DNA of 64,000 nt from a virus (IMGVR_UViG_3300021964_010723), one strand, 5' to 3'; shown: positions 20,842 through 54,183, counted from the first letter of the stretch. Notes: generated by a model from the sequence alone, not told the origin. Numbers and translations are program-made.

Positions 20842-20857
20842 TATGGGAAAAAAATAA

Positions 20858-27482: not shown

Positions 27483-27483
27483 A

Positions 27484-30124: not shown

Positions 30125-30133
30125 ATAAAATAT

Positions 30134-30853
30134 ATGGATAAAAATATAATAGATTTATTTGAAAAGAACAAATCAATTGGTCATTATTCTAAAGGTGTGC
30201 CTGCCTTGCCAAAAGAAATGATTCCTTGGCAAGGCAATTATGATCAAGCTGCAATGTGGATATTAAAAAATAGTTATCTACCTACTTTACTTTTAGATTT
30301 AGAAATCCCATTTAATGAAATGCTTGCAGAATCTGTAACCAATGACGAATATTACGTAAAACATAGAGGTAATAGATCACCTGGGTGGTATAGCATGGCC
30401 ATACATGGAACTGCAGTTAACCATACCCAACCTGCAGAATATTATTACAAAAAAAATAAACCTAAATATGATTGGACTGATTTAGCAGAAAAATGTCCTA
30501 TTACAAAAGATTGGTTAAAAAGTTTAGAATTTGAATCTTTTAGTAGGGTTAGATTTATGAAATTATCTCCAGGAGGATGGATAGAACCACATCAAGATAC
30601 ACATATTGCAGGAATTCAGGCATGGAATGTTGCTTTGAATCATCCCCCAGGACATGAATTTGTAATGGACAATTATGGATTGGTTCCTTGGCAAGAAGGG
30701 CAAGTTAGAGGAATAGATATTAGTTCTTTGCACAGTGTAAGAAATGTAGGAAAAAAGGATAGAATACATATAATTATTCATGGCAGTATTGGAGATAAAT
30801 TTAAAAAGATAATTTGTAAAAGTTATTTAGATCTGTATGAAAAAACCTATTGA
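30134..30853 (+). CDS. AspH-like 2OG-Fe(II) oxygenase
   Basis: RVRFMKLSPGGWIEPHQD (HxD), HSVRN, DRIHIII. Confidence 0.8.
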   Translation: MDKNIIDLFEKNKSIGHYSKGVPALPKEMIPWQGNYDQAAMWILKNSYLPTLLLDLEIPFNEMLAESVTNDEYYVKHRGNRSPGWYSMAIHGTAVNHTQPAEYYYKKNKPKYDWTDLAEKCPITKDWLKSLEFESFSRVRFMKLSPGGWIEPHQDTHIAGIQAWNVALNHPPGHEFVMDNYGLVPWQEGQVRGIDISSLHSVRNVGKKDRIHIIIHGSIGDKFKKIICKSYLDLYEKTY

Positions 30854-32324
30854 TATTGTGTTGTTAAGCACACCAGTAATGGAAACAAGAGTGCCTGCGC
30901 CTGCAATTTATTATCTAAAAGGCGCATTAAATCCGCATGGATTTAAATCTCGTTGTTTTGACTTAGTAAGAGATAGTGAAGAAAAATTTGGTGTAGAAGA
31001 CAATAAGAAAATAAACAGTTTTTTGTTAGCTAATTGGCATGCTGGAATGCTTGTTGATGAAGATGATAGAAGTATTTATAATAAAATTTTTCAATATTAT
31101 AGAGAATATGTAAAAGAAAAAATATTATGTTTAAATCCTAAATACATTGGTGTGAGCGTTTTCAGTCAAAATAGTCAAAAATCAAGTCACATATTATGTA
31201 AAGCTTTGAAAGAATTTTTACCGCATACTAAAATTATTTTAGGAGGAACTGGGTTAGGTATTTCTATGGGCGGAAAAAAAGAGTTTGGATCTAATTTAAT
31301 CGATCAAGGCTTAGCTGATTATTTTATTGACGGAGAAGGCGAAATTGCTTTAGTTGAACTATTAAAAGGTAATTTAAACTATCCGGGAATAAATTCTACA
31401 GTCTATAAACAAATTGATAACATAAATGATTTGCCTTTTCCTGATTATAGTGATTACATGCAAGATTACGGTAATATTAATAAAATTACTTTGACAGGAT
31501 CTAGAGGGTGCGTAAGGCGTTGTAGTTTTTGTGATATAGGAGCATTTTGGAAAAAATTTAGATATAGATCTGGTGAAAATATTGCTGAAGAAATTATTAG
31601 AAATAAAGAATTGTATAAATCCCGAACGCACTTTTTTTCAGACAGTCTTATAAATGGAAGCATGAAAGCATTTAGAGATTTTTGTAATGTTATGGCAGAT
31701 TATCATAAAAAGTATCCAAGAGGGAAGGACCGAATTAGATGGGGAGGACAGTTCATAATAAGGAGTGAAATGCAGAGTCCTGCAGAAGATTATGAATTAA
31801 TGCGTAGAGCAGGTATGTCTTGGGCTAGCATAGGAATAGAGAGTGCAAGTGAAAAAGTTAGAGATCATATGGATAAACAATTTAGTAATACAGATATGTA
31901 TTTTAGTATTGATAGATTAATAGAGAATGACATACCTGTTACTGCTATGTTTATAGTAGGCTATCCTACAGAGACTGAGGAAGAATTTAAAGAAAATATA
32001 AAATGGCTACAGTATTATGCAGATAGAAATAGCAGTAAAGTAAAACAGGAATGGAAAGGGCAAATTAAAGATATAAATTTAGGACAAACCTTAGGTGTCT
32101 TATCGGATAGTCCGTTAGGAAACATGGACATTTTTGAGGGAAAAGATACGTGGGTGTCAAAAGTTGTACCTGGTTTGGATTTTGAAGAACGGGTAAATAG
32201 ACGTAAATTGTTATCAAAAATTGCTAATGACTTAGGCTACACAGTAAGGTGGGACGAAAAACAATTACATTTTTTAAATAAAAAATTAGAAAGATGGCAG
32301 AGTAAAGGACGTCCTATAACATGA
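30837..32324 (+). CDS. Cobalamin-binding radical SAM protein
   Basis: N-terminal B12-binding-like region (IGVSVF, ILGG, GEGE); SRGCVRRCSFCD; GIES. Confidence 0.85.
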   Translation: MKKPIDIVLLSTPVMETRVPAPAIYYLKGALNPHGFKSRCFDLVRDSEEKFGVEDNKKINSFLLANWHAGMLVDEDDRSIYNKIFQYYREYVKEKILCLNPKYIGVSVFSQNSQKSSHILCKALKEFLPHTKIILGGTGLGISMGGKKEFGSNLIDQGLADYFIDGEGEIALVELLKGNLNYPGINSTVYKQIDNINDLPFPDYSDYMQDYGNINKITLTGSRGCVRRCSFCDIGAFWKKFRYRSGENIAEEIIRNKELYKSRTHFFSDSLINGSMKAFRDFCNVMADYHKKYPRGKDRIRWGGQFIIRSEMQSPAEDYELMRRAGMSWASIGIESASEKVRDHMDKQFSNTDMYFSIDRLIENDIPVTAMFIVGYPTETEEEFKENIKWLQYYADRNSSKVKQEWKGQIKDINLGQTLGVLSDSPLGNMDIFEGKDTWVSKVVPGLDFEERVNRRKLLSKIANDLGYTVRWDEKQLHFLNKKLERWQSKGRPIT

Positions 32325-33484
32325 ATACTAAAACGTTTTGTATATTGCCGTGGATGCATCTTGCAACTAATGCTAGTGGGAATTTACGAGTATGCTGCAA
32401 TTCGCTTCCTGGAAAAAATTTTGTAACAAAAGATAATGGTCAACCTTATAAAATTTATAAAGATAACTTAATTGAAGCATGGAATAGTGATGTTTACACT
32501 AAAATAAGGGAAGAAATGTTAAATGGTATAAGACCTGAAATGTGCACCCGTTGTTTTAGAGAAGAAGATACTGGAATAAAAAGTTCTAGGCAGGCCTGGA
32601 ATGAAAAATGGATGGAAAATAAAATTTACAGTAAGAATCCTGATTTTGAAATTAAATATGTAGATCTAAGATTAGGCAATTTATGTAATTTAAAATGTAG
32701 GATGTGTAATCCTTATGCAAGTAATCAATGGGTAAAGGAATGGAATTTAGTAGAAGAAGCTCTGTCGCCAAGTGAATATGATAGGTTAAGTAATATGAAT
32801 TGGCCTTCTGCAGAAAAAACTTGGATAAATTTATTTGCGATAGCAGAAACAGTTGATGAAATATATCTTACAGGAGGCGAACCTACTATTATTAAAGAAC
32901 AGCATAGATTATTAGATTATTTTATTGATAATAATATTTCTCATAAAATCAAATTAAAATATAATACAAATTTAACAAATATTCCTGCAAAGCTTATAGA
33001 AAAATGGAAAAAATTTAAAACAGTCCAATTAAATTGTAGTATTGATGCAGTAGGTGATTTAGATAGATACATACGTTTTCCTAGTAATTGGAATCAAATA
33101 CAAGAGAATTTTAATCAGGTTAGACTGTTAAAAAATGTAAATATAGAAATACATTGTACAGTACAAATGTATAACATTTTGCGATTAGATGAATTTTTAG
33201 ATTGGGCAGGACCTTATAATAATAAAATTTATTTAAACATATTGAATCATCCTGAATATCTTAATATAAGGGTTTTACCTGTAGAGTTAAAATTTATTGT
33301 AGAAAAAAAATTAAAAAAGTATTTACATTTTCCTAAAGTTAAAGGGGTTATTGATTATATGTTAGCTGAAGACTGGGTTGACCAATACAAAAATTTTGTT
33401 GATTATACGTGTAAAATTGATAAATCAAGAGAGCAAAATTTTGCAAACTTTGTACCTGAATTTCATTTAGAGAAATATGTATAA
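32321..33484 (+). CDS. Radical SAM protein with N-terminal twitch-like domain
   Basis: FCILPW..VCC..CTRC, then CNLKCRMC and GGEP. Confidence 0.85.
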   Translation: MNTKTFCILPWMHLATNASGNLRVCCNSLPGKNFVTKDNGQPYKIYKDNLIEAWNSDVYTKIREEMLNGIRPEMCTRCFREEDTGIKSSRQAWNEKWMENKIYSKNPDFEIKYVDLRLGNLCNLKCRMCNPYASNQWVKEWNLVEEALSPSEYDRLSNMNWPSAEKTWINLFAIAETVDEIYLTGGEPTIIKEQHRLLDYFIDNNISHKIKLKYNTNLTNIPAKLIEKWKKFKTVQLNCSIDAVGDLDRYIRFPSNWNQIQENFNQVRLLKNVNIEIHCTVQMYNILRLDEFLDWAGPYNNKIYLNILNHPEYLNIRVLPVELKFIVEKKLKKYLHFPKVKGVIDYMLAEDWVDQYKNFVDYTCKIDKSREQNFANFVPEFHLEKYV

Positions 33485-34706
33485 TAAAAAAACATATTGT
33501 CCTATGCCTTTTGTGACAATGACTGTGAATCCAGGAAATTACATTTCACGATGTATGATGAGTCATAAATCAATGGGAGAAATACAATCAAAAACTTTGC
33601 AAAATTTAGCGTTTGAAACGCTTAGATCTAATATGCTAAATGGAGTTTGGGATAAAGAAGGTTGTAAAGTTTGTTATAATAGAGAAAATGCAAATTTAGA
33701 TAGTCAAAGGTTAAAATGGTTAAAAAATGAAAAAATATATTTAGATGAAGAAGGTATATATGAAAAAAATATTAATTTAAGCAGAAATAAAATTTATCAT
33801 TTATATTTAAATTTTAGTAATATTTGTAATTTTAAATGTAGAATGTGCGGACCGCATTTTAGTAATGCATGGTTAAGTGACCATAGGAAATTGTTAGAGA
33901 AAGGAATATATAAAGAAATTTATAATACATCTTTTATTATTCCACCTAAAAGTCAAGTAGATATAGATAAATTTTTATTAGAATTTGGTAATGATTTACA
34001 AAATTTACGGCAAATTTGGATCACAGGAGGAGAACCGTTTATTGATAATAAATTATTTGATTTCTTTGAAAAGCTAGGAAGTTATGCAGATTTAAAAAAT
34101 ATAAAGGTAAGTATAAACACAAATGGTAGCAAGTTAGATGTTAATAAATTGAAAATTTTAAGGAATTTAAAACAAATTGTAATTAATTTTAGTGTAGACG
34201 CTGTAGGTGATTTGTATAAGTACATGCGTGGTTATAATTATGATTTTAAAGAAATTGATAAAAAGATAAACAATTGTTTAAAATTACAGAATGAGCAAAA
34301 TAATTTAAATATTGCTGTAAATGGAACTTATCAATTATATAATATTTTGAATGTAGAAGATTTTTGGCTATGGGGTAAAAAAGTCGCTAATTCTAAAAAA
34401 GGAAATTGGATAGAATATAGAACACTTTCTGGTCCAAATTTTCTTGCTGCTCGTCATGCACCTTTAACAGTAAAAAATAAAGCAGTAAAAATTTTGCAAA
34501 AACTAATAGATGACGATAAAGATTTTAGTCATAATCATTATTTGCAACAGGCTATTTGTGAATGTAAATTAAATGCTGTACCAGAGTATATAAAAAAATT
34601 TGTTAATTTTAATAACGCACTTGATAATATAAGGAATGAAAAGTTAAATGATTATTGCGAGTTTTTATTAAAAGGCTGGAGTGAAGAAGGTAATTTAGAT
34701 GAATAG
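33477..34706 (+). CDS. Radical SAM protein with N-terminal twitch-like domain
   Basis: YCPMPF..RC..CKVC, then CNFKCRMC and GGEP. Confidence 0.85.
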   Translation: MYNKKTYCPMPFVTMTVNPGNYISRCMMSHKSMGEIQSKTLQNLAFETLRSNMLNGVWDKEGCKVCYNRENANLDSQRLKWLKNEKIYLDEEGIYEKNINLSRNKIYHLYLNFSNICNFKCRMCGPHFSNAWLSDHRKLLEKGIYKEIYNTSFIIPPKSQVDIDKFLLEFGNDLQNLRQIWITGGEPFIDNKLFDFFEKLGSYADLKNIKVSINTNGSKLDVNKLKILRNLKQIVINFSVDAVGDLYKYMRGYNYDFKEIDKKINNCLKLQNEQNNLNIAVNGTYQLYNILNVEDFWLWGKKVANSKKGNWIEYRTLSGPNFLAARHAPLTVKNKAVKILQKLIDDDKDFSHNHYLQQAICECKLNAVPEYIKKFVNFNNALDNIRNEKLNDYCEFLLKGWSEEGNLDE

Positions 34707-35754
34707 GTATTGCGAAGCAGGCAAAAATCATGTATGGATACGGTCTATGGATGCAGGACCAATCGCTCAATTGTGTTGTAGTTTAGACAGGAGTAATATA
34801 CATAGATATCCATTAGATAAGGTATCTGATTTTTTAACATTGTTAGATTCTGCAGAATGGAAAAAAAAGTATGATGTGCTTGAAAAAGAAAGATTAGACG
34901 AATGTAGTAATTGCTATAAAGATGATCAACAAAAAAAATATAGTCAAAGAAGAAAAATAAATAGTCTTTGTAGAAATGGCAAGTTTTTTTTAAAAATTGA
35001 TTTTAGTAATAAATGTAATTTAAAATGTTTAATGTGTAGCAGTGCTAGAAGCACATCTTGGATTAAAGATGAATACCAATTAAAAAAAGATTTAGATTGG
35101 TGGACTTGGGGGCCTATAAAGTATTCTACATTGGGAGACGATTGGTGGCATAATTTATCAAACTTGTTTTGGAATAGTGTAGGCACAGTTGAAATTTCAG
35201 GAGGCGAACCGTTATATCAAGAAGATGCAATTGCTTTTTTAGAGTTTTTTGCTCATTCTTATCCAAATATCACAATAAGAATAATAACAAATGCAACTTT
35301 GTTAAATGACAATGTTAAAAAAATTTTTACAAAAATAAAAACATTAGATGTTTTAACAAGTATAGATGCATGGGAAGATGAAATTTATAGATATAGTAGA
35401 GGCGGAGTACATTCGTTAGATAAAATAAAAGAAAATCTTAAAATAATTAATTCTATTGTTACAAGGCATGCTGTTGTAGATACCTTACATCCAGTAAACT
35501 ACGATCAATCTCTTATTGGAAAGCAATGGCTTAGGCAAAATGGTTTAAAAGTTGATTATCATGCTTCGTATGTGTTTTCGCCAGATTTTTTAGATCCAAG
35601 AAAAGTATTACCTGCTAATTTATTGCCCGGAAAAAAAGATTATAAATTAATGAAAAGATTTAAAGAATTTATTTTAGCATTAGATAAAATACGAAATACA
35701 AATATTTTTGATATAAGACCAGAATTTGAAAAATGGTTTAAGGAGATAGGATGA
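34699..35754 (+). CDS. Radical SAM protein with N-terminal twitch-like domain
   Basis: YC..LCC..CSNC, then CNLKCLMC and GGEP. Confidence 0.85.
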   Translation: MNRYCEAGKNHVWIRSMDAGPIAQLCCSLDRSNIHRYPLDKVSDFLTLLDSAEWKKKYDVLEKERLDECSNCYKDDQQKKYSQRRKINSLCRNGKFFLKIDFSNKCNLKCLMCSSARSTSWIKDEYQLKKDLDWWTWGPIKYSTLGDDWWHNLSNLFWNSVGTVEISGGEPLYQEDAIAFLEFFAHSYPNITIRIITNATLLNDNVKKIFTKIKTLDVLTSIDAWEDEIYRYSRGGVHSLDKIKENLKIINSIVTRHAVVDTLHPVNYDQSLIGKQWLRQNGLKVDYHASYVFSPDFLDPRKVLPANLLPGKKDYKLMKRFKEFILALDKIRNTNIFDIRPEFEKWFKEIG

Positions 35755-36635
35755 AAATAGGAATTTTTGGAGATAGTTTTGCAGAAAAAGTTAATCCTGT
35801 ATTGTGGATTTGTTCAACCTTAAAGGAAAACAAGTATACAAATTACTTAAGAGAAAAAATAAGGGAAGATACTTATATTTGGCATGATTATTTTGCTGAA
35901 CAGGGGCATACAGTGCATGATTATGGTAGGGGTGGTACCGATATCTATTATTCCTATTATCAGTGGCTGCATAATCATGAAAAATATGATTGTTGCATAT
36001 TTCTTGTATCAGGTTTTCGTAGGCTCTCGGTAAGGCACAAGGACTTTAATGCAAAACATGAACAAGATCTTTGGTATTCTGTTGTAAATGTGCAAGATGC
36101 GTTACGCAAATCAAATCCAAATAAAAGTCTATTTAAAGGAAGCAAGAATAAAAAAAATGTCTATTATAATAACTTTGCAAAAGCTGCAATATATTATTAT
36201 AAAAGTATTGATGGCTACGATCCTTTTAGGCATATACATTTTTGTGAGTTAATGTTGAAAGAAATACAACAAAAGAGGCCTGATACGTTATTTGTACCAG
36301 CAGTATATAATGATCCTTTAAAAAATTCACCTACTTTAACAGACATTTATTTTATGGAAACAGCAGCAATGGGAGAAGTATATCAGAAAGAGTTAGAAAA
36401 CAATACATGTTTTATTGTTGAAGGTAACGGATTTGCTGATATAAGAGTTGCTCATTTAAGTAAGAAAAATCATGAAATACTAGGAAAAAAGATATATGAT
36501 AGTATTATGAATAAGGTAACAAATTTTAAAATAATTATTGAAGATTATATAATGGAATTTTCTCAAGACGAAATAGACAAATGTTGGATTTCGAAACAAG
36601 AATACAAGAATATAATTGAAAAAAGATATGCATAA
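35751..36635 (+). CDS. SGNH/GDSL hydrolase-like protein
   Basis: IGIFGDSFA, YGRGGT, late HLS..NH. Confidence 0.6.
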   Translation: MKIGIFGDSFAEKVNPVLWICSTLKENKYTNYLREKIREDTYIWHDYFAEQGHTVHDYGRGGTDIYYSYYQWLHNHEKYDCCIFLVSGFRRLSVRHKDFNAKHEQDLWYSVVNVQDALRKSNPNKSLFKGSKNKKNVYYNNFAKAAIYYYKSIDGYDPFRHIHFCELMLKEIQQKRPDTLFVPAVYNDPLKNSPTLTDIYFMETAAMGEVYQKELENNTCFIVEGNGFADIRVAHLSKKNHEILGKKIYDSIMNKVTNFKIIIEDYIMEFSQDEIDKCWISKQEYKNIIEKRYA

Positions 36636-37750
36636 TGAATACAGATTTAAAATATAGTAATTATGATTTTACAAAAATACCTTTTAAAGATTTAGTACAA
36701 GTTGGTCAACGAACTTTATTATATAGAGATATTTTTACAGTATCTTGGTTACTAGGTAGATATTGTAATTATCGTTGCTCATACTGTTGGCCGTATGCTA
36801 GATCTAATTCAAAAGATCATCGACCTACAAAATTATGTCTATTGACCATAGATGAAATAAAGAGGCAAGCAAGGACTAACGGATTTAATAGTTTCCATTT
36901 TAGCTTGTCAGGAGGTGAGCCGACATTTCATCCTGGATACTTAGATATCTTAAAATATCTGGCAGATGATGTTCCTAACACGAATTATACAAGCATACAC
37001 ATGACTAGTAATTGTTCTAGACCATTAGAATGGTTTAAACAATATGTTGAATATGCAAAACCATTTCATAGGGCAAGTATTACAGCGAGTTTACATACAG
37101 AACATGTATGCACAAAAGATCAAATGCAAGATTTCGCGGATAAATTAATCCTATGTCAAGAAAACGATGTTCAAATTACAATAAATCAAGTTATGGTACC
37201 TGAATGGTTTGACAGAGATTGGGAGAATGCTTTATTTTTCCATGAACAAGGAATAAATGTAACACTAAAACCGCAAAGTGATCCTACTGCTAGTCGTGTT
37301 GTTGATGGGTATACAGATGAACAATTAACAAAATTATGGAATGGGATGCCACAGCGTGCCTATACAGAATCTAAACGTAAATGGGATGATAGACCAAAGC
37401 CGTCTTATGATATCAATCCAGGAATAATGGGTAAAAATGATGCGAGTGTGCCTTGGCATATGCAAGTAGAGTTTACTGATAAAGATGGAAAAAAATGGTA
37501 TATAGATCAGGCGGAAAGATTTAATGCTTTTAATTTTAATAAATTTAAAGGATGGAGCTGTAATGCAGGATTTCAGGGTATAATTATTAGAGAACCAGAT
37601 GGAAGTGTAAAAAGAAGTTATAGCTGTCATGATGTGCCTTTAGGAAATATTGAAACAGGTTTTAATTTGTTTAAAAAACCGGAATTTTGTATAACTGATA
37701 GTTGTGTGTCAAGTGCTGACAGCAAAATTCCAAAAAGGAAAGTTTTATGA
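36635..37750 (+). CDS. Radical SAM protein with C-terminal SPASM/twitch-like domain
   Basis: WLLGRYCNYRCSYC and GGEPT; C-terminal GWSCNAG...SC...C...C. Confidence 0.85.
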   Translation: MNTDLKYSNYDFTKIPFKDLVQVGQRTLLYRDIFTVSWLLGRYCNYRCSYCWPYARSNSKDHRPTKLCLLTIDEIKRQARTNGFNSFHFSLSGGEPTFHPGYLDILKYLADDVPNTNYTSIHMTSNCSRPLEWFKQYVEYAKPFHRASITASLHTEHVCTKDQMQDFADKLILCQENDVQITINQVMVPEWFDRDWENALFFHEQGINVTLKPQSDPTASRVVDGYTDEQLTKLWNGMPQRAYTESKRKWDDRPKPSYDINPGIMGKNDASVPWHMQVEFTDKDGKKWYIDQAERFNAFNFNKFKGWSCNAGFQGIIIREPDGSVKRSYSCHDVPLGNIETGFNLFKKPEFCITDSCVSSADSKIPKRKVL

Positions 37751-38172
37751 AATTTTACATTACAGGAGTAAGAAGAGGTTTAGGAAAAGCGTTAAGTACT
37801 AAATATGGAAATTGTGGTTCTTTAGAAGAATGTGATATCTTTATTAATTGTAAGCACGATGGATTTCAACAGGTTGAAATGCTGTACAAGGCAGCAGAAT
37901 TAGGTAAACGTATTATTAACATTGGATCACACGCAAGCGACTATACATACTTAATGAAATATTCTGTTGAAAAGAAGGCATTACGCGAAGCAAACCATCA
38001 TTTATTCACTACTGGAGTTAATACGACATGTGTAAACTTCGGATATATAGATACTGAAAGTCAAGCACATAAAGATGTTTCTAAAATGAGTGTGGATTAC
38101 TGTGTTGGCGTAATAGATTGGGTGCTAAGCCAGCCATATCGGATTAAAGACATTACAGTAACGCCTACGTAA
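37747..38172 (+). CDS. Minimal short-chain dehydrogenase/reductase
   Basis: TGVRRGLG (TGxxxGxG), INIGS, YSVEK (YxxxK); only 141 aa. Confidence 0.7.
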   Translation: MKFYITGVRRGLGKALSTKYGNCGSLEECDIFINCKHDGFQQVEMLYKAAELGKRIINIGSHASDYTYLMKYSVEKKALREANHHLFTTGVNTTCVNFGYIDTESQAHKDVSKMSVDYCVGVIDWVLSQPYRIKDITVTPT

Positions 38173-38199
38173 TGTCTAACTTATGGACAATTTTTACTA

Positions 38200-40026
38200 A
38201 TGAAAAAAAATGTTTTATTATGTACTTTTAGTATTCAATTTCAAGATTGGTTGCCTTATGCTGTAGGGTGCCTTATATCTTACTGCAAAAGAAATGCTAA
38301 AATAAATGAACAATTTAATTTTTTAGAACCAGAATTTTTACAGAGATCTGTTTTTGATACACAAATGACTAAAAAGTTACAAAAAACAAATATTTTAGGA
38401 CTTACTTGTTATATATGGAACCAAGAAATAAATGATAGGTTAGCAAAAAGATTTAAAAAAATTAATCCAAATGGTTTAGTAGTGTATGGAGGACCACAAA
38501 TACCAGAAGATAAAGAAGAGGCACAAGAATATTGTAAAGAAAGACAATATGTTGATATATGTTTTGTTGGACCAGCTGAAGAAAATTTCAAACAATTTTT
38601 ACTTAAACTAGATGATCCTATAGATAGTCATGAAGGCACTGTTGGTATAGGATGGAATAATGTAAATGTTGACAGAAAATTGTATAAAGTAAATTATACT
38701 CCTACACCTTATACTGATGGAACGTTAACTAAAATGTTTTTCCTTACAGGAGATAATTATGTCATACCTATGGAAACAAACAGGGGGTGTCCGTATGCTT
38801 GTGCATTTTGTGATTGGGGAAGTGTAATAAAAAGTAAAATAACAAGATTTGATAAAGATGTTATTATGAAAGTTTTTGAACTAGCATTTAAGGGTAACAT
38901 TAATAGAATCGAATTTATAGATGCAAATTATGGTGTTTTTCCTGTAGATTTGGATTATGTAAATGAAATGATACGATTGAAATACGAGTATAAAAAAAAC
39001 GATATGAAAGTAACGTTTTGTGGACTTGCTAAAAACGGAAGTAAATACCTTGCTGAAATAATGACAAAAGTACAAAAAGAGTTTGAAGAGAATAATAATA
39101 CTATGAAATTAAGTATACAAACTCATACAAAAGAAGCTTTAGAAGTCGCAAGTAGGCAAAACATCAGTAATGAAAAAATGTTAGAAATTTATAACAATGT
39201 AAAAAAACAAGGATATGAAATTAATAGTGAATTAATTATAGGTATGCCAGGCGAAACAGATGAAACGTGGTTAGATGTTTTACAAAAAGATATCGATAAT
39301 GGTTGTAAATTTAACAGATGCTATCCGTTAAGTGTAATGCCTAATACTACATATTATTCAAAAGAATTTAGAAAAAAATATAATGCAAATTTAATAAAAA
39401 TTTTTGCACCAAAAGACCTTTTGAATATGAAATTAACCGATTATCATAAAAATCGACAAAATGCTCGATTTATTAAAACTAATGTTAGCATGACAGATAC
39501 ATTACAATGGCGCAGTATGACTATGTTTAATTGGTGTTACAGTTATACGAATGAACAATTAGAAAAAATGTACATGTATTGGTGGTGGTTCAGTACTTTG
39601 TTTAATACAGGATTTGCTAGAAAGTTTATGTTAATTTCTAAAAAATCGATTCGTTATCAAGCTTATGATTTTTTTGATAAAATTGATAAAATGCCGTTAT
39701 TTAAATCATTTTTTGATGATCAGCAGTATGCCTTTAAACAAAATTTAAGCACTAAGGAGGAAATTGTATATTTGACTGATCTATTGAGTGTCCAGTATAT
39801 TATTAAAAATCATATGCGGCTTAGAGAAGTAGTTGATATTTATGATAATTTAGATATAGCAGCAAATGAAATTCGTTTAGTTTATAAAGATTTTACGTTA
39901 GATCATATTGATAATTTTTTAACAAAAAGACATTATTATAAATTATATTCTGCAGACGGAAATATGGAAAAAAAATATGCCAACAGTTTTGTATCAGACA
40001 CCACCGTTGATTTACTTGCGAACTAA
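38200..40026 (+). CDS. Cobalamin-binding radical SAM protein
   Basis: LGLTCYIWN, VYGGPQ (B12-binding-like); ETNRGCPYACAFCDWG; IIGMPGET. Confidence 0.85.
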   Translation: MKKNVLLCTFSIQFQDWLPYAVGCLISYCKRNAKINEQFNFLEPEFLQRSVFDTQMTKKLQKTNILGLTCYIWNQEINDRLAKRFKKINPNGLVVYGGPQIPEDKEEAQEYCKERQYVDICFVGPAEENFKQFLLKLDDPIDSHEGTVGIGWNNVNVDRKLYKVNYTPTPYTDGTLTKMFFLTGDNYVIPMETNRGCPYACAFCDWGSVIKSKITRFDKDVIMKVFELAFKGNINRIEFIDANYGVFPVDLDYVNEMIRLKYEYKKNDMKVTFCGLAKNGSKYLAEIMTKVQKEFEENNNTMKLSIQTHTKEALEVASRQNISNEKMLEIYNNVKKQGYEINSELIIGMPGETDETWLDVLQKDIDNGCKFNRCYPLSVMPNTTYYSKEFRKKYNANLIKIFAPKDLLNMKLTDYHKNRQNARFIKTNVSMTDTLQWRSMTMFNWCYSYTNEQLEKMYMYWWWFSTLFNTGFARKFMLISKKSIRYQAYDFFDKIDKMPLFKSFFDDQQYAFKQNLSTKEEIVYLTDLLSVQYIIKNHMRLREVVDIYDNLDIAANEIRLVYKDFTLDHIDNFLTKRHYYKLYSADGNMEKKYANSFVSDTTVDLLAN

Positions 40027-40597
40027 AAAAACAGGAAGTTTTTCTTTAAAATTTTGTATGAGAGAATATGCATATAATAATCAAATCACTATTTTAGATG
40101 TTAAAAGTAAATATACTGATACGCTAGACACGCATAAGTTTATAAGTCATATGCCGGCTAAAGATTTAAGTAAAAGACTTGATGTATGGAATAGTGCTTA
40201 CAAATTTACGTTTGTTCGTAATCCATGGAAAGTAATATATAGTTATTATATTTATATAAAATACACATTACCAATGTATAATTATCAAGTAAAAGAATCT
40301 TATTGTGTTAATAATTTAAATGACTTTGTGCTAAGTTTGCAAGACATACACGGAACAATAAATTTTAATAGAGAAATTTATACAATTGATAATCAAGTTT
40401 GTGCAAATGTTTTTGATATATCAAGTATTCCTATAGTTATGAAAAAACTATTTATGATAGACAATGTTCCGTGTAAAAATACACAAAAATATAATTTTAA
40501 TATAAATGAGTTTACATCAAGATTAGATAACTATGTTTATAATGATTATGAATGGGAAATAAATGAGTTTGCTTACACAAAACCTACCTTGGATTGA
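39977..40597 (+). CDS. Sulfotransferase family protein
   Basis: YLRTKKTGSFS (5'-PAPS-binding-like) and FTFVRNPW..YSYY (3'-PAPS-binding-like). Confidence 0.6.
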   Translation: MPTVLYQTPPLIYLRTKKTGSFSLKFCMREYAYNNQITILDVKSKYTDTLDTHKFISHMPAKDLSKRLDVWNSAYKFTFVRNPWKVIYSYYIYIKYTLPMYNYQVKESYCVNNLNDFVLSLQDIHGTINFNREIYTIDNQVCANVFDISSIPIVMKKLFMIDNVPCKNTQKYNFNINEFTSRLDNYVYNDYEWEINEFAYTKPTLD

Positions 40598-41165
40598 TGT
40601 TGACTATGACATTCCTAATAAAAAAGAATTATTAAGGTTAATCAAAACAGTTGAGTTTGTATTAGCTGACAACAAAGTTGACGAATCGTACGACGGCATT
40701 TATCGCCGAGCTCATAATCTTACTATTGGTAAACTATGGGATCAGCAAAATATTAATGCTGAAGGCTATGACATGAAGCCATTACCTGATCAAAAACCTT
40801 ATAAAGAACTGCTAGAACTTACTTACGAAACTTCAGTTAAGGTCAAAAAAGATTTAGACTTACCAGAAAAATTACTTTACCATTGTGGGCTATTTATATT
40901 TGTTCCTAAGCAGACTAGAATAGCATATCATGTTGATAGTTTTAGAAACTGCAATGTAAGTATGCCATTAGCAAATGAAGGTTCTTATACTCGTTGGAAA
41001 TTGCCAAATGGTGAAATAGTAGAAACTTTATATGCCCGAACAGCAGTACTAGACACACATACACCGCATTGTGTTGATAATAAATCAGATAACGATCGTT
41101 ATAACTATCAGTTGACATTTCACGCAGATGTATATATTAACGACATACGGAGTTTGTTTAGATGA
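40563..41165 (+). CDS. 2OG-Fe(II) oxygenase (AspH-like)
   Basis: YHVD, HCVDN, RYNYQLTF. Confidence 0.7.
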   Translation: MSLLTQNLPWIDVDYDIPNKKELLRLIKTVEFVLADNKVDESYDGIYRRAHNLTIGKLWDQQNINAEGYDMKPLPDQKPYKELLELTYETSVKVKKDLDLPEKLLYHCGLFIFVPKQTRIAYHVDSFRNCNVSMPLANEGSYTRWKLPNGEIVETLYARTAVLDTHTPHCVDNKSDNDRYNYQLTFHADVYINDIRSLFR

Positions 41166-41227
41166 ATCCGTGGAATCAAATACACACACTGCCGCAAGTC
41201 GATGTTTTAATTGAACAAACGAAATAA
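41162..41227 (+). CDS. Unannotated 21-aa ORF MNPWNQIHTLPQVDVLIEQTK
   Basis: ATG overlaps the upstream TGA (ATGA) and it fills the 41166-41257 gap; below the ORF-track size cut-off. Confidence 0.4.
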   Translation: MNPWNQIHTLPQVDVLIEQTK

Positions 41228-41257
41228 AAGATAAATGGTTAGAGGAGATTAGTACAT

Positions 41258-41917
41258 ATGAGTATGCTTGAAAGACAGATAAATTATGCTGCTATAGTTA
41301 GCTGCGGCGACTTTCTCGAAACATTATATCCTAAATTCGATTATGAAACTGTTGCCCGTATTGTATTTGAATATGGAGATAAACACGGTTGGTATGAGCG
41401 TGGAAATCACGGAGTTAGTGGATTATCTATAGTTAATAAAGATGGAAATACAATTAGTCCAGCAGTTGATAGTATACGTAGTTATAATAAAGAAAACAAC
41501 ACAAATTGGATAGAAACAGACTTTAGACAAAAAACAGAGTTGTATAACGCAGTTGTAGAGCATATACCTTTGTTAAAGGATGCAGAACCTTTTCTATGTC
41601 GTAGCCACTTTATTAAGATGTCTCAGGGTGGAATATTTCCACCGCATCATGATGGCTTAGATGCTATTAGAATTGCAATTCCTATTTGGAATTGTGGAAC
41701 AGATGACTTTAAGTGGGGATACGAAGATAGGATCCTTCAAATGAAAGAAGGTCTTTGTTATTATATGAACACATTAAAAAAACATTGGGTTGCTAGTTTT
41801 ACTGACGATTGTTTGTTTTTACTTTTAAATATAGAACCTACCCCAGAAGCATGTTACTGGTTATGGGATACAGCACTAGGAGGATGTAATGCACCGAAGC
41901 GAAGAACTAGGCCTTAG
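41258..41917 (+). CDS. 2OG-Fe(II) oxygenase (AspH-like)
   Basis: RSHFIKMSQGGIFPPHHD, HWV; GAGGAG SD upstream. Confidence 0.7.
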   Translation: MSMLERQINYAAIVSCGDFLETLYPKFDYETVARIVFEYGDKHGWYERGNHGVSGLSIVNKDGNTISPAVDSIRSYNKENNTNWIETDFRQKTELYNAVVEHIPLLKDAEPFLCRSHFIKMSQGGIFPPHHDGLDAIRIAIPIWNCGTDDFKWGYEDRILQMKEGLCYYMNTLKKHWVASFTDDCLFLLLNIEPTPEACYWLWDTALGGCNAPKRRTRP

Positions 41918-42605
41918 TCGAGTTGTTGATGCTGGAATGACTGAAGAATGGTATAATGATATAGTAAGTGATCTACAACCTGCAATAGACTTAATAGAAA
42001 AGCACCTTAATAGTGGTTACGATAATCCAGGAGGAGAATACTTTAATTTAAGTTGGCCACTTGGCCATACTCCTTATATGCCTGCAGAACAAAAGAAGGA
42101 ACGCACAGAGCAAGGCCTGTATGAAGAAATTGAATTTGATGATTATGTACTAAATTGTAATTACTTCCGAAAAGGTACACCTGAAGAATATATTGTGCAT
42201 GGTATACGCCCAAAGTATACTAGTTTTGCAGTAGGTAAACATGTAAAAAGATATATCGATACAATTGCAGAAATAGACGGCCATCAAGACAGAAATAAAG
42301 TTATGTTAGTTATGTACAAAGGTCCTAACTTTAGTATGCAATGGCATAACGATAGTTACACATACAATAGATATCAGCTTCCAATTACTACTACACCGTT
42401 TGGACAGTTTGGCTGGCAGTATACACACAATGATGGATCTGTTGAAGAAACTTGGTTAAGTTTAGATAAGGGTGTTACATATTGGGTAGACACACAAACT
42501 ACACATATATTTGATAACAGTCGTCCGGGCTGTACTGGACGTATACACTTTATGGTAGACTACTTAGATTGGAAACCACATTACGAAAACGGATTTAAAC
42601 CATGA
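41889..42605 (+). CDS. 2OG-Fe(II) oxygenase (AspH-like)
   Basis: MQWHND, RYQLPI, HIFDN, RIHFMVD. Confidence 0.7.
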   Translation: MHRSEELGLSRVVDAGMTEEWYNDIVSDLQPAIDLIEKHLNSGYDNPGGEYFNLSWPLGHTPYMPAEQKKERTEQGLYEEIEFDDYVLNCNYFRKGTPEEYIVHGIRPKYTSFAVGKHVKRYIDTIAEIDGHQDRNKVMLVMYKGPNFSMQWHNDSYTYNRYQLPITTTPFGQFGWQYTHNDGSVEETWLSLDKGVTYWVDTQTTHIFDNSRPGCTGRIHFMVDYLDWKPHYENGFKP

Positions 42606-43495
42606 AGATAATAGACGAATCTACAATACATCCTAACTTACAAGTTCCTTGGAAAAGCCAAGAAGATGAATTCGTACCTGACTTTGATAAAAAAGTTGAT
42701 TTAGATGAAAAGCAAAGATACGAATCACAAGTTGCAAGATATGAACAAGAAAATCCAGTTAGCACTACTATTAAAGAAATACCTCATCTAAAATTAAAAT
42801 TGCCGCTTTTTAATTATGAACAGGCATGGAATGAAGTACAGCAGTTAGATGATGAAACATTTAGCCGTTGTAATCTACGTAATTATAAAGAAACGCAGGA
42901 AAAAGGGCCGATTTTGCATCCACACTGGTATAGTAAGACAATAGTAAATTATACTCCGCATAGTTATACAGGGCAAGGTAAACAAGCTAAAGAAGAAGCA
43001 GCCTGGGCATATCCAGAGTATCAAAAATATGCTGCTAGCATAGTAGATAACGTTCCTCGCTTAAACAGTGAAGATATGGAATTTTACAAAACTGAAATTT
43101 ACGATCAGTTACCTACTATTACAAATTTTATTAATACGTATATTGCTGATACAACATATCGTATGCACGTATGGAAAATTAAAGACGGTGGTTATTTAAA
43201 TTGGCACAACCATGCACGATTACCTTGGCATAGCGATGTTATTGTTAATGATAAAGCAATTGTACATTTGCCATTGTACACACATCCTGATGTATATATG
43301 CTAGTTCGTAAGGAAGGCAAAATTTATGCTGAACATTATAATCCAGGAGAAGTATGGATATTCAATTACATATACGATCATGCTGTAGATAATCCAACAG
43401 ATGTGTTTCGCTGTCATATTGTGTTGTATGTGCCACTAACTGATAAAAAGTTTTGCAGTTTAGTAGAAAGGTCTTTAAATGATCAAAGAAATTGA
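42602..43495 (+). CDS. AspH-like oxygenase with HxH iron motif
   Basis: KIKDGGYLNWHNH, VHLPL, HAVDN, RCHIV. Confidence 0.65.
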   Translation: MKIIDESTIHPNLQVPWKSQEDEFVPDFDKKVDLDEKQRYESQVARYEQENPVSTTIKEIPHLKLKLPLFNYEQAWNEVQQLDDETFSRCNLRNYKETQEKGPILHPHWYSKTIVNYTPHSYTGQGKQAKEEAAWAYPEYQKYAASIVDNVPRLNSEDMEFYKTEIYDQLPTITNFINTYIADTTYRMHVWKIKDGGYLNWHNHARLPWHSDVIVNDKAIVHLPLYTHPDVYMLVRKEGKIYAEHYNPGEVWIFNYIYDHAVDNPTDVFRCHIVLYVPLTDKKFCSLVERSLNDQRN

Positions 43496-44009
43496 TACGT
43501 GCGATTATAATATTTTACAAGATGTTAATTTTATAGTAAAGGATGCCGAGTATCTAGCAAATATTATAAAAAAACCGTGTAGAATAACTTTTTATATTTC
43601 GGAACATCGAAATTGGAATCAAATGCAGTCATTACCTGTCTTTGAAGATAACGAAAGATTTACATGTTTAGGTCCAAAACCAATGATTGAAATTTATCAT
43701 TGTAAATATAAAAACAATTTAGAGTTAGATTTTTTAAAAGATATTAAAAAAAAATATAATATTACAGACTTTGTTGTTGCTTGTATGAGTCCAAATTTTA
43801 TAATGAATTGGCACACAGATTGGTTCGGCGGCAAACGTTTGCATATTCCAATTGTAACAAATGATCAGTGCTTTCTTGAAACAGAAGAATTAAAAGTAAA
43901 TTGTCAAACTAATAAAGTTTATATTTTAGATACCGAAGTTGAACATACAGCATGTAATCTTGGAAATTCAAATAGATTACATTTAATAGGCGATTTAAAT
44001 GCAATGTAA
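43479..44009 (+). CDS. 2OG-Fe(II) oxygenase (AspH-like)
   Basis: WHTD, RLHIPIVTN, HTACN, RLHLIGD. Confidence 0.75.
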   Translation: MIKEIDTCDYNILQDVNFIVKDAEYLANIIKKPCRITFYISEHRNWNQMQSLPVFEDNERFTCLGPKPMIEIYHCKYKNNLELDFLKDIKKKYNITDFVVACMSPNFIMNWHTDWFGGKRLHIPIVTNDQCFLETEELKVNCQTNKVYILDTEVEHTACNLGNSNRLHLIGDLNAM

Positions 44010-44589
44010 AAAAATTGATATTAATATCGACATAAATACACTAAAAGATATATTAAGCCCTTATTGCAATAATTTACATAACATTGCAAAACAATATCCA
44101 GACGATATTGTAAGAGTAATGACTAATTATCCTGCAGGGTTAGGGCATTACACAATGAATAAACGCTTAGACGAAAATTGGCAAGTAATTGAAACTGATG
44201 AATATTTTCTATATACAATGATTAACAAATTTAGTACACGTATGATAAGTGTTTACTATAAAGAGTCTGCCGATATTGACAATTATATACAAGAAATTAT
44301 AAACAAAATACAATCTGTAGAAAATATAAAAGATAAAACTCCTGTAGTTGCATTAGTATATGCTGGTCCTAAGTTTAGATTAGAGAAACATATCGATAGT
44401 AAAGGGTTAGTAAGGTATCATATTCCGCTAGAAACTACTGAACACAGTTATTTTGTAACTTATGATCCTAAAACTAAGTGGTGGCCAAAAGAAGGCGACG
44501 TATGGCGTTTAGAGACTGAGAAATATCATGCAGCAATGAACGATAGTGAAACAGAAACAAGAATACATATGATAGTGGATTTTATCTAA
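43999..44589 (+). CDS. 2OG-Fe(II) oxygenase (AspH-like)
   Basis: KHID, RYHIPLET, HAAMN, RIHMIVD. Confidence 0.75.
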   Translation: MQCKKIDINIDINTLKDILSPYCNNLHNIAKQYPDDIVRVMTNYPAGLGHYTMNKRLDENWQVIETDEYFLYTMINKFSTRMISVYYKESADIDNYIQEIINKIQSVENIKDKTPVVALVYAGPKFRLEKHIDSKGLVRYHIPLETTEHSYFVTYDPKTKWWPKEGDVWRLETEKYHAAMNDSETETRIHMIVDFI

Positions 44590-45218
44590 TGACTAATGTA
44601 ACGCTATTAGACACAAATTTTAAAGATATGTTAACTGAGTTAAAAACTGAGCTAGCGCCTTATCTTGCAGCAATGCAAGATTATGAGCAACATTTAGATT
44701 TTAGTAAATACCCAAATAGAGTAGCAATTGTATACCCTGTAGGCAATACACAAAAAAGTTTATATGCAAGCAGAAATCTTGATAAAAAGAAACCAGTTCA
44801 CAGAGATTTTGAAACATACAAAAGTTTGCAATTATTTTTCCCCGGACATCAAACTTTAAACCATACGCTCCAACTTAAAGGAGGAAAATATCCTGTTGAT
44901 ATAATTAATAAAATAAAGTTTATTATTTTTAAAGAAACTGGATATGATGTATTAGAGTGCGAAGCAGCAATTGCAACAAAGTATAAAAACTACACATTGC
45001 AGCCGCACATTGACGGTGATAAGGAAGAAAGTGGAGTAACGAACAGAATTCATTTGGTATTAGAGTCTAGTGAAACAAATTACTTTGAAGATGAAAATAA
45101 AATGAGATACAACCTTAAAGAAGGAGAAGTTTGGGATCTAGATGTTACACGTACACATGGTACTGGAAACTTTTCAGATGCTAGAGCTACTCATCTAGTT
45201 CTCGATTACAAAGGATGA
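44589..45218 (+). CDS. 2OG-Fe(II) oxygenase (AspH-like)
   Basis: PHID, RIHLVL, HGTGN, RATHLVLD. Confidence 0.7.
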   Translation: MTNVTLLDTNFKDMLTELKTELAPYLAAMQDYEQHLDFSKYPNRVAIVYPVGNTQKSLYASRNLDKKKPVHRDFETYKSLQLFFPGHQTLNHTLQLKGGKYPVDIINKIKFIIFKETGYDVLECEAAIATKYKNYTLQPHIDGDKEESGVTNRIHLVLESSETNYFEDENKMRYNLKEGEVWDLDVTRTHGTGNFSDARATHLVLDYKG

Positions 45219-46774
45219 AACTTTTACTATGTACTATACCTAAAAATGGAGTCAATACTCCTAGTCTAGCAATCGGATACCTTCAAGCGGCTTGTAAGCA
45301 GCAAGGCATAGCCGTAGAAGTAAGAGATTTTAACTGGGACCTCTGGAATGCTACTATACATACGGACTGGTGGGAAATATGGAAAGAGTCTAACACAGAT
45401 TTATACAAAGGTAATCGATTTAATCAGTTTGTCAATGAAGTATACGACAACTTTCTTGATAAGTGGGCAGAAGAAATAGCAAACAACAATGCTGAATGGA
45501 TCGGCATCAGTTGTTTTAGCTATCGTAGTTTGCCTAGTTTGAAACTTCTGGCTCCTAAAATCCGCAAACTTGCTCCTACTAAAAAGATAATTGTCGGCGG
45601 CGCTCCTATAGCAACATATGCAAATTGGATTATAGCAAATAATATAGCAGATTATGCAGTTGAAAGCGAAGGCGATGTTGTGCTTCCTAAAATACTTAAA
45701 GGAGAGATACAGCCCGGAATTGTTAAATCTATACAAATTGATGACCTTAACTCCTTACCGCCAGCAGATTATACAGGACTAGATTTTTCTAAATATATCC
45801 CAGGAGATCCAGGCGGACTACGAGTACATCATAATTCAGCCTGGACTAGTAATAGAGTTGAAGCAGGAATAATGGGTAGTAGAGGATGCGTTCGTAAATG
45901 TACATTTTGTGATGTAGAACAGTATTGGCCTAAATTTAGATGGCGCAGTGCCGAAAGCATTTATGACGAAATGCTAATGCTATACAACAAAGGCATAAAC
46001 GAAATATATTTTTACGATAGTTTAATAAATGGTAATCAAAGCGAGTTTGAAAAGTTGCTAGATTTAATTATCGCAGATGGTTCTAAGTTTAGAAGTATCA
46101 AAGGTTTAGCAATTTTTAAATTTCAGCCTGAAAGGTTGTATGAAAAAATGTCTAAAGCAAATGTGAAACAACTAAGTATCGGGGTAGAAAGTTTCTCAGA
46201 AGAAATTCGTACACAGATGCGTAAAAAGTTTAGCAATGCTACTATGGAAGAAAATCTTGAAATGTACAAAAAGTACAAAATAAGAGTAGTACTGCTAATG
46301 GTAATAGGGTATCCTAGTGAACGAGAAAAACATCATAAAGAAAATCTTAAATGGATAAGAGAACATGCCAGCATGGCACAAGGAAAACCAATTAGTAGAA
46401 TTGAAATAGGCGGAACAATGATTATACTACCTGGAGCTCCTGTGTTCAAAGATCATATGTTTGATTATTATATTGACAAAAAAAATGAATGGATTTCACT
46501 AAATGGTAGAGAATCTAATACGATGGATGTTAGAGTGAGACGTAGAGAAGAAACTGAAGACTATTGTGCTCGTTACGGATTTGCTACTGGAAGTGTATAT
46601 GGAGAAGGAGGAATTGTTTTAGGTGATCATGAAAAAAATAATGCTGCTGACTATAAACGCCCGCAAGATAGTCTGACACCATTAACAAATATTAATAAGT
46701 TAAATTTTGAAGAAGACGGCATTGTATTAGGATGGGAAAGTGATCCAACTCGACCATTACATCAAAATTCGTAG
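45215..46774 (+). CDS. Cobalamin-binding radical SAM protein
   Basis: IGISCF, IVGG, ESEG; SRGCVRKCTFCD; GVES; paralog of 30837. Confidence 0.85.
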   Translation: MKLLLCTIPKNGVNTPSLAIGYLQAACKQQGIAVEVRDFNWDLWNATIHTDWWEIWKESNTDLYKGNRFNQFVNEVYDNFLDKWAEEIANNNAEWIGISCFSYRSLPSLKLLAPKIRKLAPTKKIIVGGAPIATYANWIIANNIADYAVESEGDVVLPKILKGEIQPGIVKSIQIDDLNSLPPADYTGLDFSKYIPGDPGGLRVHHNSAWTSNRVEAGIMGSRGCVRKCTFCDVEQYWPKFRWRSAESIYDEMLMLYNKGINEIYFYDSLINGNQSEFEKLLDLIIADGSKFRSIKGLAIFKFQPERLYEKMSKANVKQLSIGVESFSEEIRTQMRKKFSNATMEENLEMYKKYKIRVVLLMVIGYPSEREKHHKENLKWIREHASMAQGKPISRIEIGGTMIILPGAPVFKDHMFDYYIDKKNEWISLNGRESNTMDVRVRRREETEDYCARYGFATGSVYGEGGIVLGDHEKNNAADYKRPQDSLTPLTNINKLNFEEDGIVLGWESDPTRPLHQNS

Positions 46775-47388
46775 TCAAATAGTTTTATTTCGTATGCAAA
46801 ATCTTTTAAGATTTGGTCGTGCATCCAATCTTTGTATAACGTTTTATATGTAGCCTTGCTGTGTGTACCTGTGTTTAAAACTGGTAAATCTGGTAATATA
46901 TATCCGCTAAAGATACTATTTAAATAATTACGTAAATGTTCTATAGGAAGGATGTGTTTGGCTACTATAGTTCCGTCTAATGTGTAGTAATCTTTACCTG
47001 GATTCAATGTGCCACGTAGTTCTAAAAGTCCTTGACAGAAGCGGTTAAATGTGTCTGTAGGTACTTGTGTAACTCCTAGCTTTTTCATATGATAAAATTT
47101 ACTTGCTAATAAATTCCATGGGTTGCGGACAGTAACTATTATTTCCATTTTATTCCACCACTGTGGAAATGTTTCTTTGGCTCTCGCCGCAGTCATGTGA
47201 TGCGTAATTATAGTGTCTTGTTCAATGTCAACATTAAAGTTGCTTTGTTTATAATTTAAACTTGTTAAATAGGGACGATGATTAATTTTAGCAAACTCTA
47301 CAAGCCAGTGTGTCATGCTAAGACTTGCACTTTTTGGCTGGCGTAAGTAACAAATAAATTTTCCAGGCGGAAAGATTATACTAGTCAC
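46762..47388 (-). CDS. Sulfotransferase family protein
   Basis: YLRQPKSASLS and VTVRNPW..LASKF. Start proposed at GTG 47388 (GTGA overlap with the upstream stop) rather than ATG 47448. Confidence 0.6.
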   Translation of the reverse strand: MTSIIFPPGKFICYLRQPKSASLSMTHWLVEFAKINHRPYLTSLNYKQSNFNVDIEQDTIITHHMTAARAKETFPQWWNKMEIIVTVRNPWNLLASKFYHMKKLGVTQVPTDTFNRFCQGLLELRGTLNPGKDYYTLDGTIVAKHILPIEHLRNYLNSIFSGYILPDLPVLNTGTHSKATYKTLYKDWMHDQILKDFAYEIKLFDYEF

Positions 47389-47849
47389 ATTATTCTCATA
47401 ATAAATTGATGTCCGCCATAGTGCAATTGTTCGTGTGAAATATTCCAAAGGTATTTTGAGAATTTAGCAAAATATTCAAATAGTTTAGGACTTTCCTCTC
47501 TACTTAGCCAGATACTGGTATAGCCTAGGGCTAATGCATACTTTGTACTAAGATCCAAAGTTTCTAATCCTCTTGCTAAATCATTAGACTTAGTGCCAAA
47601 ATTGTAAGTTCTTTCTCGAGTATGTCGGCTCATAATTCTTATTGATTTATTATATTCTGGTCTTTCTATTCCAGCACTATAATAAATTAGTTCTCCATTA
47701 TAGTATGCCATTCTAGCAAATTTAGTGTATTCAAATAAAGGCCATTTTAAGTAATTATCTGCGTGTCTGTGAGTAGAATTTTTTTCAAATAGAGTTTTTA
47801 TTGCATTTAAATGGCTGTCTATAGGCTCTAAATACCATTTTAGGTGCAT
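47385..47849 (-). CDS. Hypothetical protein (possible GNAT-like fold)
   Basis: 154 aa; alpha/beta pattern with 'YALALGYTSIWLS' reminiscent of GNAT motif B; weak. Confidence 0.45.
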   Translation of the reverse strand: MHLKWYLEPIDSHLNAIKTLFEKNSTHRHADNYLKWPLFEYTKFARMAYYNGELIYYSAGIERPEYNKSIRIMSRHTRERTYNFGTKSNDLARGLETLDLSTKYALALGYTSIWLSREESPKLFEYFAKFSKYLWNISHEQLHYGGHQFIMRIM

Positions 47850-54154: not shown

Positions 54155-54183
54155 AAAGTCTCCTATGATGTAATTATACTTAT

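Follow-up and report, generated by a model that had tools for sequence, protein, structure and literature searches.

A 64,000-nucleotide stretch of DNA from an uncultured jumbo T4-related phage (IMGVR_UViG_3300021964_010723; the whole stretch is called the window below, and its genes are named by their lowest coordinate) carries three genes for B12-type radical S-adenosylmethionine (SAM) enzymes, namely 30837, 38200, and 45215. We propose that these genes belong to a single island of about 40 tailoring genes, arranged in two operons and transcribed late, rather than being three copies of one module. The island lies in the tail-fibre (host-recognition) region of the phage, where, late in infection, it would make or edit a single product that carries many modifications and is linked to the fibres of the virion. 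On balance, we lean towards this explanation as a whole: the three genes would encode functional class-B radical SAM enzymes, with a cobalamin-type Rossmann domain and a [4Fe-4S]/SAM core, within a late tailoring island making one fibre-linked product.

What is new here is, first, one B12-type family that is widespread in uncultured large phages and, second, one phage with three B12-type genes among 14 radical SAM enzymes. If the enzymes are active, the phage would take B12, iron-sulfur clusters, and SAM, each of them scarce in the host, for its reproduction or for the chemistry of its virions, and a heavily alkylated, hydroxylated, and sulfated product would result. This would amount to new enzymology and might add a new level to the control of host range. 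A bolder and rather speculative extension is that the phage C-methylates, hydroxylates, and sulfates its own host-recognition apparatus (a fibre or its glycan) with host cobalamin. The B12 status of the host would then set virion surface chemistry and hence infectivity or host range, and 30837 and 45215 would represent a large unrecognised viral B12 class.

The three B12-type radical SAM genes

All three open reading frames (ORFs) are intact and lie on the + strand: 30837..32324 (495 aa), 38200..40026 (608 aa), and 45215..46774 (519 aa). Each contains a single CX3CX2C motif (CVRRCSFC, CPYACAFC, and CVRKCTFC, respectively), and each scores over the cut-off of the Radical_SAM model PF04055 (E = 1.5e-19, 2.8e-12, and 4.8e-20), which places them in the radical SAM superfamily. 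The B12-binding model PF02310 is over its Pfam cut-off in 45215 alone (E = 3.5e-10; 40.2 bits vs 32.1). An N-terminal cobalamin-type domain is recognised in 30837 through its homology to 45215 and in 38200 through its alignment to the cobalamin domain of TokK. The original prediction had described three genes of the class-B type, and this description stands.

The proteins of 30837 and 45215 share 29% identity (E = 1e-54), with about 470 residues aligned from residue 5, the N-terminal domain included. Judged by this alignment they are paralogues, as had been claimed, and old ones; the motif cited in that claim is present. The gene 45215 heads a clade of conserved orthologues, roughly 45 in number and found in metagenomes at 44-89% identity; 30837 has no relative above 40% identity except in one near-identical record (G001). 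PF02310 is annotated on most homologues of the family. The best full-length folds returned by Foldseek for the AF2 model of 45215 (pLDDT 82) are TsrM (top, E = 1.6e-16), MiaB, QCMT/MgmA, AprD4, OxsB, CysS, and TokK, and the best sequence match in the PDB is QCMT (9ccb, 2.8e-8). In NCBIfam, the best matches of 30837 are PhpK, a ladderane B12 enzyme, and BchE, all far under their cut-offs. The C-methyltransferase model for ribosomally synthesized and post-translationally modified peptides (RiPPs; TIGR03975, cut-off 281.85 bits) is not passed by 45215 (99.7 bits) or 30837 (77.3 bits). A MiaB-type methylthiotransferase was considered for both genes and ruled out: the conserved N-terminal cysteines are absent among the invariant columns.

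No such paralogy links 38200 to the other two genes, the kinship being limited to the superfamily, and by sequence comparison the three genes are of two unrelated subfamilies. Residues 16-396 of 38200 align with TokK (7kdx; E = 4e-40) over both the cobalamin and the radical SAM domains, and CysS is matched at 5e-24. Equivalents of TokK W76 (CYIWN) and W215 (FCDWGS) are retained in the alignment. In radical methylases, W76 of TokK lies under the cobalt and W215 lies between cobalamin and the cluster (2026 review, PMC12931638). The protein is a homologue, not a member, of the KedN5 family NF033712 (E = 1.4e-49; 168.9 bits, cut-off 700).

Cobalamin dependence is graded: it is likely for 38200 and probable for 30837 and 45215, and dependence on B12 supplied by the host is a reasonable expectation. 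Most probably, 38200 is a TokK/CysS-type enzyme that puts one or more methyl groups from methylcobalamin on an unactivated carbon radical, and 30837 and 45215 most probably act as C-methylases as well.

The distribution of the 30837/45215 family was followed with three pattern-based scans, covering viral, metagenome, and cellular sequences. The family occurs in at least 547 viral-contig stretches and at least 521 metagenome stretches, and in 18 loci among 185,579 cellular species, mostly metagenome-assembled genomes of Bdellovibrionia. By these counts, uncultured large phages often have the family, whereas few cellular genomes do. Some of the contigs with Bdellovibrionia homologues (L180-L194) are 0.3-1.2 Mb long, and N-terminal-twitch radical SAM and AspH-like genes lie near these homologues.

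AspH-like oxygenases and sulfotransferase-fold proteins

The island contains nine genes for AspH-like Fe(II)/2-oxoglutarate (2OG) oxygenases. As the original prediction had it, two of them directly precede B12-type genes: 30134..30853 (+; PF05118, E = 1.6e-12; HxD...H) overlaps 30837 by 17 nt, and 44589..45218 (+) shares a 4-nt start/stop overlap with 45215. The latter falls short of the PF05118 cut-off (E = 3.2e-4; 21.0 bits vs 22.6) and matches at 5e-36 an AspH-like profile that was built from the island paralogues, 44589 included, and their relatives in other loci. Six further genes on the + strand within 40563..44589, namely 40563 (weak), 41258, 41889, 42602, 43479, and 43999, were assigned by Pfam, by the profile, and by an aligned HxD...H, and one gene lies in the convergent operon (47840..48472, -; PF05118, E = 6.5e-7). 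The PF05118 cut-off is passed by 30134, 42602, 43479, 43999, and 47840. When 41258 and its orthologues are left out of the profile, 41258 is still matched at E = 7e-13 and 40563 at E = 5e-6. The HxD...H triad is aligned in 9/9 paralogues and is invariant in alignment A5.

Two sulfotransferase-fold proteins adjoin the B12-type genes. The first (39977..40597, +) lies downstream of 38200 and has no Pfam match of its own; the second (46762..47388, -) is tail-to-tail with 45215, with a 13-nt overlap, and matches Sulfotransfer_1 under the cut-off (E = 3e-4; 20.7 bits vs 22). The second gene most likely begins at the GTG at 47388, because its homologues, roughly 20 in number, are 208 aa long, the length that this start gives. 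The two proteins are paralogues (25% identity, E = 2e-11) in which YLRxPKxxS, resembling the 5'-phosphosulfate-binding motif (5'-PSB), and VRNPWxxxxS, resembling the 3'-phosphate-binding motif (3'-PB), are invariant. With an AF2 model of the 46762 family (pLDDT 79), Foldseek ranks 1-40 are all 3'-phosphoadenosine-5'-phosphosulfate (PAPS) sulfotransferases (TM ~0.5, best probability 1.0). On motifs and fold, 39977 and 46762 are predicted sulfotransferases, in agreement with the earlier assignment of these neighbours of 38200 and 45215.

Layout and content of the island

The island spans 12815-51439 (38 kb) and consists of two convergent operons beside tail-fibre genes. The + operon runs from 12850 to 46774, and a T4-type late promoter box, TATAAATA, stands at 12815..12822 (+), 30 nt before its first gene, ORF 12850. 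A second box of this type (51432..51439, -) precedes the - operon, which runs from 51399 to 46762 and whose first gene is the Mtd_N fibre gene (49816-51399, -; Mtd_N, E = 7.9e-8). The octamer is three-fold depleted in the window, with 7 copies observed vs 21 expected; the copy at 12815 is the sole match on the + strand, and six lie on the - strand. Two of the seven copies directly precede operon heads, and the other five are in or opposite coding sequence. Inter-gene distances are -64 to +92 nt in both operons. Scans for sigma-70 promoters and terminators were uninformative, with counts near those of shuffled controls. From the promoter boxes, late expression of the island is probable.

In all, the island has 14 radical SAM, nine AspH-like, and two predicted sulfotransferase genes. 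Eleven radical SAM genes in addition to the B12-type trio lie within 19768..37750 (+) and were assigned by Pfam, NCBIfam, and paralogy: eight of the N-terminal-twitch type (NF033640), 19768, the split gene 25777/26516, and 36635. One CX3CX2C motif is present in each of the 14. The two parts of the split gene, 25777-26523 (the core) and 26516-26905, jointly match its full-length paralogue 36635-37750. Two further genes of the island resemble a desaturase and, weakly, a nitroreductase. The only apparent gap in the + operon is filled by a 72-aa ORF (18832-19050), the only small ORF, which is coupled by its start and stop to the genes on either side. Its conservation extends over the full length, and four other phage loci (L175, L021, L065, and L162) have it at 49-64% identity. 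The ORFs from 12850 to 18835 and those at 19044, 28760, and 35751 have no match in Pfam, NCBIfam, or PHROGs; in the Atlas, 28760 falls in viral hypothetical-protein clusters only.

Weighing of the explanations

Several observations weigh against the explanation that we favour. PF02310 remains under its cut-off in 30837 (E = 0.006, 16.8 bits) and 38200 (E = 0.002), and none of the three proteins passes any curated NCBIfam model; they are homologous to named families without belonging to them. The fold search with 45215 also returns MiaB and AprD4, in which a B12-like domain occurs without cobalamin. The promoter call rests on an 8-mer. The genes of the island that resemble short-chain dehydrogenases/reductases (SDR), aminotransferases, and SGNH esterases are weak matches or motifs seen by eye, and no glycosyltransferase, nucleotide-sugar enzyme, or precursor peptide is recognisable among the island genes of the window. 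The nearest solved relatives of the AspH-like profile are hydroxylases of free proline or free amino acids, not protein hydroxylases.

As for the acceptor of the modifications, a sugar or glycan appears to be the foremost candidate, just short of an even chance; fibre-protein side chains are a lesser one, and a free amino-acid or peptide-derived metabolite is less probable still. The hints of a free metabolite are the above relatives of the AspH-like profile and the QueC-like PP-loop neighbours in related phages.

A sugar or glycan on the virion or the host envelope is a plausible, if tentative, target. The products of the B12-type enzymes would then be sugars with C-methyl branches, like those of GenK, GenD1, and KedN5-type enzymes, and further decoration of the same glycan would fall to the oxygenases and sulfotransferases. 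This agrees with KedN5 being the best family for 38200, with the SDR-like, aminotransferase-like, and SGNH-like genes, and with the sugar-acting AprD4 and BlsE among the structural and sequence neighbours. In two relatives (L103 and L018), a GT32 glycosyltransferase (7e-14) is found inside the orthologous AspH/45215 module, and host-recognition clusters of pelagimyophages contain glycosyltransferases as well as radical SAM cassettes (PMC7029224). However, the island in the window has no glycosyltransferase or nucleotide-sugar gene, the substrates of TokK and CysS are non-sugar, and the SDR and aminotransferase calls are weak.

Direct modification of the phage fibre protein is possible, with a lower probability. 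Here the AspH-like enzymes would hydroxylate Asp/Asn or other side chains, the B12-type enzymes would C-methylate residues in the manner of QCMT, Mmp10, and PoyB/C, and the sulfotransferases would sulfate the new hydroxyls. Fibre genes and late promoters bracket the island, and the Mtd_N fibre gene 49816 is conserved in relatives together with AspH 47840 and with 47385, 48465, and 49228 beside the 45215 orthologue; it is found beside other family members too. In the fibre, the tetrapeptide G-[DN]-[VL]-x is repeated in tandem about 13 times, with N-x-T/S motifs formed by several of the copies, and this stretch is a candidate acceptor region. The best PDB sequence match of 45215 is the protein methylase QCMT and its best NCBIfam match is the RiPP C-methylase model, and Iyer et al. 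2010 (PMC2938197) took the same associations of genes to predict hydroxylation with subsequent sulfation. But both the QCMT match and the RiPP-model match are weak and confined to the core, the AspH-like profile lies near hydroxylases of free amino acids, with human AspH absent from its matches at E < 0.01, and no leader or recognition-element domain was found. The SDR-like and aminotransferase-like genes and the glycosyltransferase of the relatives are also ill-suited to simple side-chain chemistry.

It is rather unlikely that the adjacencies are without functional meaning, the island being a hypervariable store of cassettes and each B12-type enzyme acting on its own substrate. With 14 radical SAM, nine AspH-like, and two sulfotransferase genes in the island, such neighbours are expected. 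PF05118 is found in 3/67 dereplicated upstream neighbours of the family, and outside the 45215 clade an AspH-like gene lies upstream in 5/136 cases, equal to the 3.2% background of AspH-like genes in the loci. Permutation within the island (42 genes, nine AspH-like and two sulfotransferase) gives P = 0.11 for AspH preceding two of the three B12-type genes and P = 0.02 for a sulfotransferase touching two of the three, both values being weak and post hoc. Cassette content varies among relatives, and in other phages the family adjoins gp46-like, SegE, and unknown small proteins.

Against this, the AspH-like profile, which is more sensitive than PF05118, places an AspH-like gene directly upstream in 7/9 distinct loci of 45215 orthologues (52-99% identity) and two genes upstream in the other two, the overlapping start and stop being retained down to 52% identity. 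In a tree of 142 family members, the 11 with AspH directly upstream require 6 state changes vs 10-11 with shuffled labels. The whole gene train is, moreover, translationally coupled under one promoter. The pair of AspH (44589) and 45215 is therefore a real, conserved two-gene unit, and its conservation makes it likely that hydroxylation and methylation occur at neighbouring positions of the same substrate. The pair forms a small two-enzyme system that is testable.

Sulfotransferases of the window's type adjoin B12-type genes in this phage lineage only. Yet in two loci (L098/L099, 58% identity) a Sulfotransfer_4 gene (E = 9e-18), not homologous to 46762, abuts the 45215 orthologue tail-to-tail; by sequence, the position is the same and the gene a non-orthologous replacement, so that a sulfotransferase stands there in two lineages, which speaks against chance.

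The adjacencies expected in relatives by the original prediction are consequently borne out for the 45215 clade and, for the sulfotransferase, by a protein of another family; they do not extend to the rest of the 30837/45215 family or to the window's type of sulfotransferase in other lineages. Its repeated oxidise-methylate-sulfate module is not upheld: the trio stands among 14 radical SAM and nine AspH-like genes, 38200 has no adjoining hydroxylase, and AspH is upstream at no more than the background frequency outside the 45215 clade. Genes like 38200 in other loci have different genes downstream.

Last, because AprD4, a dehydratase, and MiaB are among the fold matches (TM 0.58-0.65 for AprD4), the 30837/45215 family may not use cobalamin or not methylate, its Rossmann module being cofactor-free or otherwise used and its chemistry being dehydration, ring formation, or C-C coupling, as the low B12-binding score of 30837 and the non-methylating BchE, OxsB, and lipid ring synthases (BchE and the ladderane enzyme being among the NCBIfam matches) would allow, but this is improbable given the B12-binding domain of 45215 and of most homologues, TsrM as the best structural match, and the lack of a MiaB-type cysteine triad.

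Gene neighbours in other phages

In most other phages (within the phage and metagenome loci L017-L176), conserved small unknown proteins flank the family: some 50 ORFs cluster at about 175/160 aa and 17 at about 135 aa. None of these partner families has a homologue in the window. Genes similar to gp46 and SegE are frequent neighbours. A cluster of QueC-like proteins, with 28 members, is also a common neighbour of the family. In one locus, a QueC-like PP-loop protein (L017:11558-12172; E = 4e-7) directly follows the 45215 orthologue, and in another a 204-aa ORF (L101:3027-3641) has the length and position of that gene. The contexts of distant N-terminal-twitch homologues in KVP40 and Vibrio phages gave a QueC-like neighbour as the sole lead. 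In one of the relatives with the GT32 gene, a subtilase of 798 aa (L103:2274-4670), into which a copper domain of the plastocyanin/azurin type is inserted, adjoins the Mtd_N fibre gene.

Relation to known systems

In cells, radical SAM enzymes that depend on cobalamin are known to take part in methanogenesis and in pathways to antibiotics, cofactors, and lipids. The closest likeness of 38200 is to TokK, ThnK, and CysS (KedN5 family, NF033712), with which it shares the alignment over both domains, the NRGCPYxCxFCDWGS context, and the equivalents of W76 and W215. In contrast to these enzymes, its C-terminal 200 residues are unmatched, its family score is 169 bits vs 700, and the phage has no carbapenem, cystobactamid, or enediyne genes. 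The model of 45215 has the two-domain architecture of TsrM (top in Foldseek), QCMT/MgmA (top by sequence), and OxsB, but identity is 14-16%, no family model is passed, and the non-cobalamin AprD4 is structurally an equally good match.

The polytheonamide proteusin cluster combines the B12-type C-methylases PoyB and PoyC with the epimerase PoyD and the hydroxylase PoyI. Like clusters of this type, the island combines, in one operon, several B12-type radical SAM enzymes with other members of that superfamily and with Fe/2OG hydroxylases. Unlike them, it has no NHLP-type or other recognisable precursor and no LanM-like or protease genes, and its enzymes are not Poy orthologues.

Among phages, Iyer et al. 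2010 (PMC2938197) predicted the hydroxylation and then sulfation of tail-collar and collagen-like proteins. AspH-family oxygenases and sulfotransferases beside tail-fibre-type proteins are common to that system and the island; the scheme, itself a prediction, includes no radical SAM or B12-type enzymes, and the island oxygenases are nearest to free-amino-acid hydroxylases. Zaragoza-Solas 2020 (PMC7029224) mentions in passing that marine T4-like myophages have radical SAM cassettes in their host-recognition cluster, and Nishimura 2017 (PMC5332604) likewise mentions 12 radical SAM genes in one T4-like genome. Such clusters resemble the island as hypervariable regions among fibre genes with swappable radical SAM cassettes and AspH-like genes, but no mention of B12-type members and no proposal of a chemistry was found in either paper. 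The 2026 review of the enzyme class (PMC12931638) does not mention viruses, and our literature searches found no paper on B12-type radical SAM enzymes in phages or on the 30837/45215 family.

The phage and its nearest record

The window has a G+C content of about 30%. Its phage origin, correctly called from the start, is evident from tail-fibre PHROGs, the Mtd_N fibre, the T4-type late promoters, and a T4-type RNaseH, whose closest counterparts, with about 50% identity, are in the jumbo phages PA5oct and RaK2. Tail-fibre and tail-collar PHROG matches occupy 7077-12819, and the start of the window has an ORF longer than 2,100 aa.

The record nearest to the window (G001) is a fragment of 86 kb from IMG/VR with a CheckV completeness of 18%. 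All 14 radical SAM genes are present in it in the same order, and the B12-type genes compared are 99% identical. It was also the sole match in single-protein scans with 45215 and 38200. One protein of the window is recorded on a 245-kb contig as well. Among phage isolates, megablast with the island gave no match, and tblastn with 45215 gave a single weak one, to Streptomyces phage SF3.

An Rfam scan of the window returned no cobalamin riboswitch and no other Rfam family. At 52871-55325 (-), a MoxR-type AAA+ ATPase adjoins a protein of the DUF2201 metallopeptidase/von Willebrand factor A (VWA) type. A CobS/CobT identity was ruled out for this pair: the NCBIfam CobS and CobT models have no match, and the VWA protein is of the DUF2201 type. 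At 61469-62521 (-), the phage encodes a PnrA/Bmp-type substrate-binding protein of an ATP-binding cassette (ABC) transporter (E = 9.5e-43).

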